From Octopus sinensis (lineage: Eukaryota), in the NCBI RefSeq assembly GCF_006345805.1, contig NC_043006.1:91822001-91886000 (forward strand): a stretch of 64,000 nucleotides of DNA, given 5' to 3'. Within the stretch, counting starts at the first letter, position 1. Every line of letters begins with the position of its first letter. The notes beneath the pieces were generated by a model that did not search any database, was not told where the DNA came from, and saw only the letters and a list, made by a program, of their open reading frames with translations. Shown in pieces: positions 12,816 to 51,228 of this stretch. A program made the translations under genes and the position numbers.

Positions 12816-12819
12816 TATA

Positions 12820-13290
12820 ATTGCAGCGTGGAAGGTGTTTATAAGCCATTTAAGAAACACACAAAACCGTTAGATTCACTTCAACATTTAAATTTTATTT
12901 GTCAAAATATTTTCGGCGCTTTGAGACCGTGACTTGTTCACTGACAAAGCTTTGTTCTGCATCTGAGAAAGTAACAGTTACTTTCTCAGATTCATGATAT
13001 ATATGTACGTATGTATGTGTGTGTATGTATGTATGTATGTATGTATGTATGTATGTATGTATGTGTGTATGTATTTATGTATGTATGTATTTATGTATGC
13101 ACGTATGTGCGTATGTATGTATGTGTGCGCATGCCTATACGTATGTATGTGAGTATTTAGGAGAGTGTGTAGACGTGTCTGTGTGTTTTTACATGTGTAT
13201 GTATATGTGAACGTATGTTTATGTAATGATATGTGTCAGTTCAAGTTGTATACATGACTGTTACCTTATTGAAGGTTGTATATATACACA
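12820..13290 (-). repeat. Left arm of a ~470 bp inverted repeat (partner 17370-17830)
   Basis: Near-exact reverse complement of 17370-17830, including the microsatellite-rich segment. Confidence 0.9.
12898..12948 (-). ncRNA. Type I hammerhead-like ribozyme, G3-C8 core variant
   Basis: Minus: TTTGTCA GTGAACA A GTCAC GGTCTCAAA GCGCC GAAA ATAT TT TGACAAA. Confidence 0.6.
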
Positions 13291-13533
13291 CATACACATT
13301 TATATAGACACACACACATATATATGCGTATGTGTGTGCTTTTGCCTCTCTCACCACCATTTAACGGTGAATGGATATAACGTCTTAGATACATATATGC
13401 ACATATAACCTTATACATTTATGTAAGTACACACACTCATATAGACACTCATATATACGCTCATCCATCTCTACATACATTCATACATATACACACACAT
13501 ACATACAAATAAATATACATATATATATATATT

Positions 13534-13605
<72 letters not shown>

Positions 13606-13609
<4 letters not shown>

Positions 13610-14298
13610 CAAAATAAGAAAATGGAGAAATACATCAAAATCAATTATCAACTACCAGATAATACCCAATCACATAATTTATTAAACCACTACATATGAA
13701 CATTAAGGTCAAACATAATAATATAGAACAAAACAGTGTACATGAAGGAGTAATATGATACAATAAGTACAGTATGCATAAGTGAATATAAATAAATATA
13801 AATATAAATATAGACTACATCTTACAGCTGTTTCGGCCATGCAGATATGGGTGTCTCATTTTGCTCGGCTAATATGAGCAAAATGAGACACCCATATCTG
13901 CATGGCCGAAACAGCTGTAAGATGTAGTCTATATTTATATTTATTTATATTCACTTATGCATACTGTGCTTATTGTATCATATTACTCCTTCATGTACAC
14001 TGTTTTGTTCTATATTATTATGTTGACCTTAATGTTCATATGTAGTGGTTTAATAAATTATGTGATTGGGTATTATCTGGTAGCTGATAATTGATTTAGA
14101 TGTATTTTTCCATTTTCTTATCTTGTATTAGTAATTTGTGGTAAATCATTTTACCTTTGCCCATATAATACAGTAAATGAATTATTGCATCGCAATTTTT
14201 AGCATTTATGTATTAACTTTGTTGGGTACTTCACTAGCAGTATATTGGATATGTGTTATCCCATGGAGGGTTGCATTTACAACCCCTATCTCAATTTG
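13606..14298 (+). mobile_element. Foldback Penelope-like insert in (TA)n with the 3' half of a hammerhead
   Basis: ~260 bp arms 13606-13867 / 13878-14130; GGCC GAAA CAGCTG TA AGATG near 13904-13924; unique tail ending CCCCTATCTCAATTTG. Confidence 0.75.
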
Positions 14299-14737
14299 TA
14301 TATATATATATATATATAGCAATTAAGGACAACTACTTAATAAGGAAAACTTAACAAGAAATTGTCAGGTAGATAGCGTGAAAACCTCATAGAGAAAAAA
14401 TTTCGAAAATAATTATTTCTTATTGAACATATTAATTTATATATAGAGGGCATTATACATACATGCCAGATGGCATTATACATACATGCCACACGCTAAG
14501 AGGGACAATTAGTCATTTCTACCAAAAATATTACTAATCCCACCGAATGCAATTTTTCAAAGTAAGACATTTAAAAAATATAGACCTGTATCACAGTGAT
14601 TTCATACTTACGTATTCATAAAAAGTCTGACATTTACAGGATGTAATATATGTAAACTCACCCATGTGCTTCGTTGATGTTGATAAGTTAGCTGATCGGC
14701 TTAAGCGAGGCAGGGTCGTTTATGTATGATACATCCA

Positions 14738-14783
14738 GGCCTGCTGATGAATACGTAAGTATGAAATCACTGTGATACAGGTC
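14738..14783 (+). ncRNA. Minimal type I hammerhead ribozyme, intact
   Basis: GGCCTG CTGATGA ATAC GTAA GTAT GAAA TCACTGTGA TA CAGGTC; predicted cut after A14777. Confidence 0.9.
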
Positions 14784-15215
14784 TATATTTTTTAAATGTC
14801 TTACTTTGAAAAATTGCATTCGGTGGGATTAGTAATATTTTTGGTAGAAATGACTAATTGTCCCTCTTAGCGTGTGGCATGTATGTATAATGCCATCTGG
14901 CATGTATGTATAATGCCCTCTATATATAAATTAATATGTTCAATAAGAAATAATTATTTTCGAAATTTTTTCTCTTATGAGGTTTTCACGCTATCTACCT
15001 GACAATTTCTTGTTAAGTTTTCCTTATTAAGTAGTTGTCCTTAATTGCTAAATTTTTATTCCGAAAAAACTTTTCCTTTCCCGAAATGCAATTCGTAAAA
15101 AGTCTGACATTTACAGGATGTAATATATGTAAACTCACCCATGTGCTTCGTTGATGTTGATCAGTTAGCTGATCGGCTTAAGCGAGGCAGGGTCGTTTAT
15201 GTATTGATACATCCA

Positions 15216-15261
15216 GGCCTGCTGATGAATACGTAAGTATGAAATCACTGTGATACAGGTC
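15216..15261 (+). ncRNA. Minimal type I hammerhead ribozyme, intact
   Basis: Identical to 14738-14783, 478 nt downstream. Confidence 0.9.
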
Positions 15262-16571
15262 TATATTTTTTAAATGTCTTACTTTGAAAAATTGCATTCG
15301 GTGGGATTAGTAATATTTTTGGTAGAAATGACTAATTGTCCCTCTTAGCGTGTGGCATGTATGTATAATGCCATCTGGCATGTATGTATAATGCCCTCTA
15401 TATATATATATATATATATAATATATAATATATATATATATAATACAAAATAAGAAAATGGAGAAATACATCAAAATCAATTATCAACTACCAGATAATA
15501 CCCAATCACATAATTTATTAAACCACTACATATGAACATTAAGGTCAACATAATAATATAGAACAAAACAGTGTACATGAAGGAGTAATATGATACAATA
15601 AGTACAGTATGCATAAGTGAATATAAATAAATATAAATATAAATATAGACTACATCTTACAGCTGTTTCGGCCATGCAGATATGGGTGTCTCATTTTGCT
15701 CGGCTAATATGAGCAAAATGAGACACCCATATCTGCATGGCCGAAACAGCTGTAAGATGTAGTCTATATTTATATTTATTTATATTCACTTATGCATACT
15801 GTGCTTATTGTATCATATTACTCCTTCATGTACACTGTTTTGTTCTATATTATTATGTTTGACCTTAATGTTCATATGTAGTGGTTTAATAAATTATGTG
15901 ATTGGGTATTATCTGGTAGCTGATAATTGATTTAGATGTATTTTTCCATTTTCTTATCTTGTATTAGTAATTTGTGGTAAATCATTTTACCTTTGCCCAT
16001 ATAATACAGTAAATGAATTAATTGCATCGCAATTTTTAGCATTTATGTATTAACTTTGTTGGGTACTTCACTAGCAGTATATTGGATATGTGTTATCCCA
16101 TGGAGGGTTGCATTTACAACCCCTATCTCAATTTGTATATATATATATATATATAGCAATTAAGGACAACTACTTAATAAGGAAAACTTAACAAGAAATT
16201 GTCAGGTAGATAGCGTGAAAACCTCATAAGAGAAAAAATTTCGAAAATAATTATTTCTTATTGAACATATTAATTTATATATAGAGGGCATTATACATAC
16301 AGCCAGATGGCATTATACATACATGCCACACGCTAAGAGGGACAATTAGTCATTTCTACCAAAATATTACTAATCCCACCGAATGCAATTTTTCAAAGTA
16401 AGACATTTAAAAATATAGACCTGTATCACAGTGATTTCATACTTACGTATTCATAAAAAGTCTGACATTTACAGGATGTAATATATGTAAACTCACCCAT
16501 GTGCTTCGTTGATGTTGATAAGTTAGCTGATCGGCTTAAGCGAGGCAGGTCGTTTATGTATGATACATCCA

Positions 16572-16616
16572 GGCCTGCTGATGAATACGTAAGTATGAAA
16601 TCACTGTGATACAGTC
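16572..16616 (+). ncRNA. Hammerhead copy, one G missing in stem I 3' strand
   Basis: Same core; ends TA CAGTC. Confidence 0.75.
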
Positions 16617-17046
16617 TATATTTTTTAAATGTCTTACTTTGAAAAATTGCATTCGGTGGGATTAGTAATATTTTTGGTAGAAATGACTAATTGTCCCTCT
16701 TAGCGTGTGGCATGTATGTATAATGCCATCTGGCATGTATGTATAATGCCCTCTATATATAAATTAATATGTTCAATAAGAAATAATTATTTTCGAAATT
16801 TTTTCTCTTATGAGTTTTCACGCTATCTACCTGACAATTTCTTGTTAATTTTCCTTATTAAGTAGTTGTCCTTAATTGCTAAATTTTTATTCCGAAAAAA
16901 CTTTTCCTTTCCCGAAATGCAATTCGTAAAAAGTCTGACATTTACAGGATGTAATATATGTAAACTCACCCATGTGCTTCGTTGATGTTGATCAGTTAGC
17001 TGATCGGCTTAAGCGAGGCAGGGTCGTTTATGTATTGATACATCCA

Positions 17047-17091
17047 GGCCTGCTGATGAATACGTAAGTATGAAATCACTGTGATACAGTC
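17047..17091 (+). ncRNA. Hammerhead copy, one G missing in stem I 3' strand
   Basis: Same core; ends TA CAGTC. Confidence 0.75.
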
Positions 17092-17229
17092 TATATTTTT
17101 TAAATGTCTTACTTTGAAAAATTGCATTCGGTGGGATTAGTAATATTTTTGGTAGAAATGACTAATTGTCCCTCTTAGCGTGTGGCATGTATGTATAATG
17201 CCATCTGGCATGTATGTATAATGCCCTCT

Positions 17230-17272
<43 letters not shown>

Positions 17273-17369
17273 TATATATATATTTATACATACACAAACG
17301 CGCGCACACACACAACACACACATATATATATATGTGTGTGTGTGTCTATATAAATGTGCATGTGTGCA

Positions 17370-17890
17370 TATATACAACTTTCAAAAGGTAACAGTCATG
17401 TATACAACTTGAACTGACACATATCATTACATAAACATACGTTCACATATACATACACATGTACAAACACACAGACACGTCTACACACTCTCCTAAATAC
17501 TCACATACATACGTATAGGCATGCACACATACATACATACGCACATACGTGCATACATAAATACATACATACATAAATACATACACACATACATACATAC
17601 ATACATACATACATACATACATACATACATACACACACATACATACGTACATATATATCATGAATCTGAGAAAGTAACTGTTACTTTCTCAGATGCAGAA
17701 CAAAGCTTTGTCAGTGAACAAGTCACGGTCTCAAAGCGACGAAAATATCTTGACAAATTAAATGTTGAAGTGAATCTAACGGTTTTGTGTGTTTCTTAAA
17801 TGGCTTATAAACACCTTCCACGCTGCAATTGTTTTCGTTCCAGCACATGATCTTAGATCAAGTCACTCGCTATGCAAGTACATCTCCATA
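17370..17890 (+). mobile_element. Sense arm of Penelope-like element (partner of 12820-13290) with unique 3' tail
   Basis: Hairpin ATCTGAGAAAGTAAC-T-GTTACTTTCTCAGAT, hammerhead-like motif, tail 17831-17890, then (TA)n. Confidence 0.75.
17707..17757 (+). ncRNA. Type I hammerhead-like ribozyme, G3-C8 core variant
   Basis: TTTGTCA GTGAACA A GTCAC GGTCTCAAA GCGAC GAAA ATAT CT TGACAAA (U16.1 replaced by C in this copy). Confidence 0.55.
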
Positions 17891-17905
17891 ATATATATAT
17901 ATATG

Positions 17906-48863: not shown

Positions 48864-48989
48864 TATATTAAGGGCTAAAGAGGGTTATTCTAAAGCCAAA
48901 TACACGTTTTATCCACTTATAATCCGCTTGCTACAGAAATTGAAACTGAAAACGGGCAACTAACCTTTAGAAAATTTAAATTTCGTTAT

Positions 48990-49053
48990 CTCTATATTGA
49001 ATCAATTTCGGACTTAATCTTATAAAAAAAGATATATTCCTTCTTCAGTAGAA
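48990..49053 (-). ncRNA. Type I hammerhead ribozyme
   Basis: Minus: TTCTA CTGAAGA A GGA..TCC GAAA TTGATTCAA TA TAGAG. Confidence 0.8.
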
Positions 49054-50466
49054 CTTTCGATGGGATAATAAAATACTCAATGATATCAAGGAAAAAGATG
49101 GAAAAAAGCAAAAGCAGCTAAAAACAAATACACTTGAGTACATCACTTATATCTAAAAATAAAAATTCTTTGGTCAGCCTCAGAAAACAACGTCCAGACC
49201 TTTCGCCGCTACAAATTGTAATGGTTACCATCCTCCTGTAGCAAGCATCGAGTTACTACTAAGCAATATAGGATGAAGTCCCTTACTCTACAGCAAAGGA
49301 ATTCATCAGGAAGCGTGGGCAGTATATTTAAAAAAACCGTTACGTTGCAATATACATCATATAATTAAGGGCTAAAGAGGGTTATTCTAAAGCCAAATAC
49401 ACTGTTTTATCCACTTATAATCCGCTTGCTACAGGAAAATTGAAACTGAAAACGGGCAACAACCTTTAGAAAATTTAAATTTCTTTATCTCATATTGAAT
49501 CAATTTCGACTTAATCTTATAAAAAAGATATTTCCTTCTTCATTAGAACTTTCGATGGGATATATAAATAAAATACTCACGTATGATCATGGAAAAAGCA
49601 CAAGCTAAAAACATAACTACACTTGAGTACATCACTTATTCTAAAATAAAAATTCTTTGGTCAGCCTCAGAAAACAACGTCCAGACCTTTCGCCGCTACA
49701 AATTGTAATGGTTACCATCCTCCTGTAGCAAGCATCGAGTTTACTACTAAGCAATATAGGATGAAGTCCCTTACTCTACAGCAAAGGAATTCATCAGGAG
49801 CGTGGGCAGTATATTTAAAAAAACCGTTACGGTTGCAATATACATCATATAATTAAGGGCTAAAGAGGGTTATTCTAAGCCAAATACACTGTTTTATCCA
49901 CTTATAATCCGCTTGCTACAGGAAAATTGAAACTGAAAACGGGCAACTAACCTTAGAAAATTTAAATTTCGTTATCTCTCTATTGAATCAATTTCGGACT
50001 TAATCTTATAAAAAAAATATATTCCTTCTTCAGTAGAACTTTCGATGGGATATAAATAAAATACTCACGTATGATCATGGAAAAAGCACAAGCTAAAAAC
50101 ATAACTACACTTGAGTACATCACTTATATCTAAAAATAAAAATTCTTTGGTCAGCCTCAGAAAACAACGTCCAGACCTTTCGCCGCTACAAATTGTAATG
50201 GTTACCAGTCCTCCTGTAGCAAGCATCGAGTTACTACTAAGCAATATAGGATGAAGTCCCTTACTCTACAGCAAGGAATTCATCAGAAGCGTGGGCAGTA
50301 TATTTAAAAAAACCGTTACGGTTGCAATATACATCATATAATTAAGGGCTAAAGAGGGTTATTCTAAAGCCAAATACACTGTTTTATCCACTTATAATCC
50401 GCTTGCTACAGGAAAATTGAAACTGAAAACGGGCAACTAACCTTTAGAAAATTTAAATTTCGTTAT

Positions 50467-50529
50467 CTCTATATTGAATCAATTTCGGACTTAATCTTTA
50501 AAAAAAGATATATTCCTTCTTCAGTAGAA
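50467..50529 (-). ncRNA. Type I hammerhead ribozyme
   Basis: Minus: TTCTA CTGAAGA A GGAATATATCTTT..AAAGATTAAGTCC GAAA TTGATTCAA TA TAGAG. Confidence 0.8.
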
Positions 50530-50961
50530 CTTTCGATGGGATATAAATAAAATACTCACGTATGATCATGGAAAAAGCACAAGCTAAAAACATAACTACA
50601 CTTGAGTACATCACTTATATCTAAAAATAAAAATTCTTTGGTCAGCCTCAGAAAACAACGTCCAGACCTTTCGCGCGCTACAATTGTAATGGTTACCAGT
50701 CCTCCTGTAGCAAGCATCGAGTTACTACTAAGCAATATAGGATGAAGTCCCTTACTCTACAGCAAAGGAATTCATCAGGAAGCGTGGGCAGTAGTATATT
50801 TAAAAAAACCGTTACGGTTGCAATATACATCATATAATTAAGGGCTAAAGAGGGTTATTCTAAAGCCAAATACACTGTTTTATCCACTTATAATCCGCTT
50901 GCTACAGGAAAATTGAAACTGAAAACGGGCAACTAACCTTAGAAAATTTAAATTTCGTTAT

Positions 50962-51024
50962 CTCTATATTGAATCAATTTCGGACTTAATCTTATAAAAA
51001 AGATATATTCCTTCTTCAGTAGAA
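50962..51024 (-). ncRNA. Type I hammerhead ribozyme
   Basis: Same motif; the copies near 49487 and 49975 carry disrupting variants. Confidence 0.8.
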
Positions 51025-51228
51025 CTTTCGATGGGATGTAAATAAAATACTCACGTATGATCATGGAAAAAGCACAAGCTAAAAACATAACTACACTTGA
51101 GTACATCACTTATATCTAAAAATAAAAATTCTTTGGTCAGCCTCAGAAAACAACGTCCAGACCTTTCGCCGCTACAAATTGTAATGGTTACCAGTCCTCC
51201 TGTAGCAAGCATCGAGTTTACTACTAAG

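Follow-up and report, generated by a model that had tools for sequence, protein, structure and literature searches.

Is a hammerhead motif in which the pair between core positions 3 and 8 is swapped from C3-G8 to G3-C8 a natural compensatory variant, or the remains of a ribozyme which has drifted? The question is raised by two inverted motif copies in the window, a stretch of 64,000 nucleotides of Octopus sinensis DNA, for which a first-pass annotation had proposed compensation. The features of the window needed to answer it are listed below.

12819 to 13385, minus strand: inverted partner terminal repeat (pLTR), ending at the proximal 3' end and without a tail, so that the tail is one-sided
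12898 to 12948, minus strand: inverted second motif copy, with G3 at 12941 and C8 at 12936
13561 to 17280, no strand given: 1.84-kb tandem duplication of other repeats (13561-15445 against 15399-17280, 99%)
17306 to 17892, plus strand: 5'-truncated Penelope-like pLTR, from blastn to the near-full-length copy L106 (76-81%) and from the 3'-end clusters
17691 to 17699, plus strand: putative internal transcription start (AGATG), ~60 nt before the cut site, which also resembles a 3' splice site
17707 to 17757, plus strand: minimal type I hammerhead motif, damaged, with G3 at 17714 and C8 at 17719

Both copies carry the motif with G3 and C8 on their respective strands, where the annotation had placed them. 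In the plus-strand copy the 7-bp stem I (17707-17713 paired with 17751-17757) and the core GTGAACA (17714-17720) were located as it had described, helix II is formed by 17722-17726 with 17736-17740, and GAAA occupies 17741-17744. Both copies have an extra nucleotide between A9 and G10.1 (17721 in the plus copy), which had been overlooked. In an intact form of this copy the cut is predicted after 17750; as it stands, it is damaged by U16.1 to C and by one helix II mismatch. In the minus-strand copy G12 lies at 12914, helix I ends at 12898 and three of the five helix II pairs are left, while the AATATT palindrome around loop III, reported for this copy, is intact. Private mutations had been noted for each copy, and each has one (in the plus copy C replaces U16.1, in the minus copy it replaces A11.2), but two other departures from the family form, G to A at the extra base and G to A at 10.4, are common to both.

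Inverted arms (12819-13338 and 17316-17830, ~520 bp, 95.6% complementary) enclose both motifs. The predicted minimum-energy fold of two intact family copies is the hammerhead (z -3.07 and -2.23), with helices I and II around the core and G10.1-C11.1. The two window copies do not show this arrangement, their predicted minimum-energy fold being no hammerhead (z -0.95 and -1.41), and both are probably inert. A scan of the window with Rfam gave no hammerhead among the best 150 of 227 matches, most of these 150 being miRNA-like and lying on simple repeats and palindromes. An alternative register, in which helix I is extended by a G-U pair and the core reads UGAACAA, was rejected, as the core consensus, which is in register in the sister families, would then be lost.

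Other repeats in the window also hold hammerhead-like motifs. The 1.84-kb duplication is nested between the two arms and is not part of the G3-C8 element. Between the arms another repeat also holds four plus-strand type I hammerheads with the canonical C3-G8 pair (14737-14784, 15215-15262, and from 16571 and 17046); they have a CUGAUGA core, a 4-bp helix II and a closed helix III, with a one-base deletion in helix I of those at 16571 and 17046. A 526-bp near-perfect palindrome occurs twice (13605-14130 and 15441-15966). In its arms just the 3' half of a hammerhead-like motif is present; the palindrome is probably a pair of inverted pLTRs from a third family, with their junction within the motif. 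At 48900-51200 on the minus strand, a tandem repeat of ~495 bp has a CUGAAGA hammerhead-like motif with a long loop II and a palindromic helix III; each unit holds a second, CUGAUGA core, and the repeat is retrozyme-like.

Both window motifs lie in worn pLTR copies of a Penelope-like retroelement, a host which the annotation had not named. The plus-strand pLTR consists of a (TACA)n-rich upstream part, the hammerhead motif and an ORF start codon at 17800, and it ends at the distal 3' end, with the tail. The 3' ends of sampled family copies form two clusters ~60 nt apart (41/99 and 54/99), with one window arm ending at each. An inverted partner and a one-sided tail are the usual Penelope-like pattern (excerpts of PMC8557442 and PMC11167929), and the window arms show both, the inverted partner being 5'-truncated. 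Elsewhere in the genome, L106 is near full-length, with a pLTR, an ORF with one frameshift and a second pLTR, the G3-C8 motif being in both pLTRs; L105 has an open frame of 1042 codons and a G3-C8 motif downstream, and in L013 the motif follows one ORF and precedes the next.

Motifs for reverse transcriptase (RT) and GIY-YIG are present in the ORF of L105 and L106, which gives a single frame, RT followed by GIY-YIG, with direct pLTR flanks. Because searches of Pfam, NCBIfam and PDB sequences with the ORF gave nothing significant and no direct match, the domains were assigned through these motifs and annotated relatives. A homolog search returned 106 relatives, the best (58%) being named at source as an RT-domain protein of Octopus vulgaris, and distant relatives bear PF00078 and PF01541. 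A CX3CxxC linker precedes the endonuclease; in excerpts of PMC8557442 such a linker is described for Neptune and Nematis but not for Poseidon, the likeness to those clades being one of the linker only.

Several copies depart from this layout. Directly ahead of the putative start, a short hairpin duplication (window 17666-17694) stands in place of a branch-point-like CTAAC in the two window copies and in a few more. At L066, L074 and G000:C30:13622459-13625524 the G3-C8 pLTR is repeated in tandem arrays whose unit is ~170 bp; the array at C30:13.62 Mb carries A3-C8. Such arrays would place many hammerheads in one transcript.

The claim that G3-C8 is natural, family-wide and missed by a CUGANGA descriptor held up. 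A family 25-mer with G3-C8 has 2838 exact matches in the genome, versus 0 for the reversed control, so the motif is not due to chance. With another base at position 3 there were 118 matches; among the first 100 of these listed, no C3-G8 revertant within the family was found, and one tandem array supplies 18 of the 100. The G3-G8 25-mer has 118 copies, clustered on C20 and C30, and a small G3-G8 sub-lineage seems to have multiplied without the 3-8 pair. A DNA search of the octopus's own genome gave 2907 candidates, of which 40 were scored, and the aligned copies share the motif. An unbiased sample was drawn with a 25-mer anchor ~50 nt downstream (4525 matches, the first 100 listed yielding 99 distinct sequences, including a few near-duplicates). 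In the 78 copies that cover the core, G3 was present in 77, C8 in 69 and the G3-C8 pair in 69; U4, G5, A6, A9, G12, A13, A14, A15.1-U16.1 and H17 were each found in 71 to 77, and the positions of the AATATT palindrome of helix III in 75 to 78. The literal C3 and G8 of the hammerhead consensus are what the family lacks, as its variant feature. Among the rows listed for contigs of four runs labelled as four organisms, no change at position 3 or 8 was seen, and the loose-end consensuses of three of those runs have G3-C8.

The annotation had put forward the fixation of G3 and C8 as a check. They are fixed, yet this does not discriminate, as the free position 7 is equally fixed (57 matches with a base other than A, versus 2838). 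Fixation therefore shows descent rather than selection, and was ruled out as proof of the latter.

What supports the compensatory reading instead is that sister families carry C3-G8 or U3-A8 at the homologous site. Families 30 to 38% identical were found by searching with the first 200 residues of the protein, and 20 loci were fetched from them. A strict hammerhead descriptor had no match in these 20 loci; by reading, motifs were found at the homologous place in the DNA before the ORF starts. The C3-G8 family (L126, ~2700 copies) showed its pair in 97 of the first 100 listed of 2682 matches. In most of its copies the conserved A9 is replaced by C, so this genome tolerates changes in the core. 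The U3-A8 family (L112 and L097, ~1700 copies) has 1687 matches, and 91 of the first 100 listed show its pair; it lacks loop III, and its helix I is very short. A looser pattern gave 1813 matches versus 332 for the control, and fully canonical CUGANGA forms made up 53 of the first 100 listed (hand count). They include a CUGAAGA core, the exact double revertant of GUGAACA, in which the TGTCA helix I arm and the GTC/GAC helix II base are unchanged. No A3-U8 family appeared among the first 100 listed of these 1813 matches, all to one narrow pattern.

Of 24 loci given, 23 N-terminal protein pieces are in a tree with three supported clades, 34 to 43% identical, which match the three 3-8 pairs. The pair labels were assigned by family, and L013, which itself carries G3-G8, belongs to the G3-C8 clade. 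Among 16 hand-chosen rows the 3-8 pair was CG in eight, GC in six and UA in two, with none unpaired; in helix II, two pairs have changed in both partners. The covariation amounts to only two independent switches of the pair, and both would be complementary by chance in ~1 in 10 to 1 in 16 cases (rough estimate). Two G3-C8 subfamilies (a young one of 31 copies and an older one of 27) differ in 0/41 hammerhead-constrained columns; other non-coding columns differ in 13/79, or in 10/~75 after dropping three flank-noise columns. The comparison of 0/41 with 10/~75 gives p 0.01, or 0.07 if the clustered changes are counted as six events. On this comparative evidence G3-C8 is probably compensatory.

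The 5' ends of inserted copies bear on whether the RNA is cut before insertion. Starts fell 52 to 64 nt upstream of the cut site, at AGATG, in 53/99 sampled copies; 14/99 extend further upstream, and 0/99 start within 3 nt of the predicted cut. A control family with the canonical C3-G8 pair, imperfect as a control since most of its copies carry A9C, has no clear peak at the cut either: 4/98 starts lie within 2 nt of it, where ~2 are expected (36 truncations over ~100 positions). Of 18 copies that begin at AGATG beside foreign flank, 13 have an extra G directly ahead of it, at a place which is C or T in the element (P = 7e-7, for a G share of 18%). Read as reverse transcription of a cap, it suggests that inserted copies derive from uncut, capped RNA. 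The motif lies 15 to 65 nt after the putative start, before the ORF.

Minimal type I hammerheads (min-HHRs) in metazoan Penelope-like pLTRs were described by Cervera and de la Pena in 2014 (PMC4209133, in excerpt). As in those, the motif here lies in a pLTR, has an extra base between 9 and 10.1, G10.1-C11.1, a palindromic 15.2-16.2 with loop III and a longer helix II, and its copies are mostly solitary or inverted. Unlike those, pair 3-8 is G-C, helix I is a perfect 7 bp and position 17 is U. The same paper gives a natural U3-A8 variant in Schistosoma mansoni. Natural 3-8 covariation was reported by Perreault et al. in 2011 (PMC3088659), section 8 of which reports only U3-A8; the octopus families resemble these variants in covarying naturally at 3-8 and have G3-C8 besides. 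In the Penelope hammerhead PAc, of Poseidon, a C3G/G8C double mutant partly restored cleavage (excerpt of PMC11167929), and engineered G3-C8 cores are partly active (excerpts of PMC8495972 and PMC3884650). Like PAc, the octopus element has its 3' ends in two clusters, which give a tail, and it apparently inserts from RNA that is uncut. It differs from the PAc mutant in that G3-C8 is natural and family-wide and that the motif lies wholly before the ORF instead of overlapping its start (PMC11167929). In the literature searched, G3-C8 was found only as the engineered mutant, though a natural case may already be in print; no natural G3-C8 occurs in the excerpted text of review PMC6765202 and of two supplement files of PMC4209133.

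We favour, with a probability of about 0.6, the reading that the family carries a minimal type I hammerhead in its pLTR, in which G3-C8 likely keeps the tertiary 3-8 pair and would allow slow self-cleavage, probably aided by dimer formation or by a protein. In hammerhead catalysis the 2'-OH at position 8 takes part and G12 is the base. The pLTR would start a capped transcript ~60 nt before the cut site, and helices I (7 bp) and II (5 bp) would form. The 2-bp palindromic helix III would form only with a partner copy on a tandem transcript or with the aid of the protein which the element encodes; the need for a partner copy is noted for such palindromes in an excerpt of PMC4209133. G3-C8 would position the 2'-OH at position 8 as C3-G8 does, with G12 acting as base, and the RNA would be cut after U17. 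Cutting would trim or separate transcripts and would not be needed for insertion, because inserted copies appear to derive from uncut RNA.

Position 17 is U in the G3-C8 family and mostly C in the canonical sister families. Folding predicts a G3-U17 wobble extending helix I, which could be a trap of an inactive state. An inhibitory C3-G17 pair is discussed in an excerpt of PMC3884650, where a G3-C8 variant with C17 is described as less active than with G17 (data not shown there). By analogy, U17 may be an adjustment which avoids a G3-C17 Watson-Crick pair. The fuller proposal, of an active natural G3-C8 hammerhead with three-way covariation with the sister C3-G8 and U3-A8 families and a U17 avoiding that trap, is to our mind only slightly better than an even bet.

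The family may instead descend from a canonical hammerhead which drifted at positions 3 and 8, its complementarity being luck or a fossil of selection, and the element having multiplied without cleavage. This would be in keeping with the anole element, which inserts from unprocessed RNA and whose hammerhead mutants left insertion in vitro unaffected (excerpt of PMC11167929), with the uncut state of inserted copies, with the G3-G8 sub-lineage and the A9C sister family, and with a position 7 as fixed as positions 3 and 8. However, in both subfamilies the whole rest of the core, G10.1-C11.1, A15.1-U16.1 and the two helices have stayed intact while five columns of loop II have changed, and three families have three different Watson-Crick pairs; we consider an inert relic possible but rather doubtful. 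It is rather improbable that the fold is conserved with negligible cutting, as a protein-binding site, a structured leader or a promoter-proximal element. The place of the motif just past the putative start and ahead of the ORF would suit such a role, the anole hammerhead was protein-assisted and needed the element's protein (PMC11167929, in excerpt), and Cervera and de la Pena leave roles other than cleavage open (PMC4209133, in excerpt). Yet conservation falls on the bases of the catalytic core, and a DNA promoter element would leave unexplained why both partners change in helix II pairs and in the 3-8 pair.

The G3-C8 family is neither a new fold nor a new mechanism. Natural U3-A8 has already been published (PMC3088659 and PMC4209133, in excerpt), and natural G3-C8 may be new. 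If the motif cuts, it would be a natural counterpart of the classic rescue mutant, and the evidence from nature for the 3-8 contact would then comprise a third Watson-Crick pair. The family widens the descriptor for hammerhead searches; as present descriptors would miss such families, some elements called hammerhead-less may not be so, if this reading is true. Together, C3-G8, U3-A8, G3-C8 and the mismatched G3-G8 form a matched set with which the need of Penelope elements for a ribozyme can be tested.
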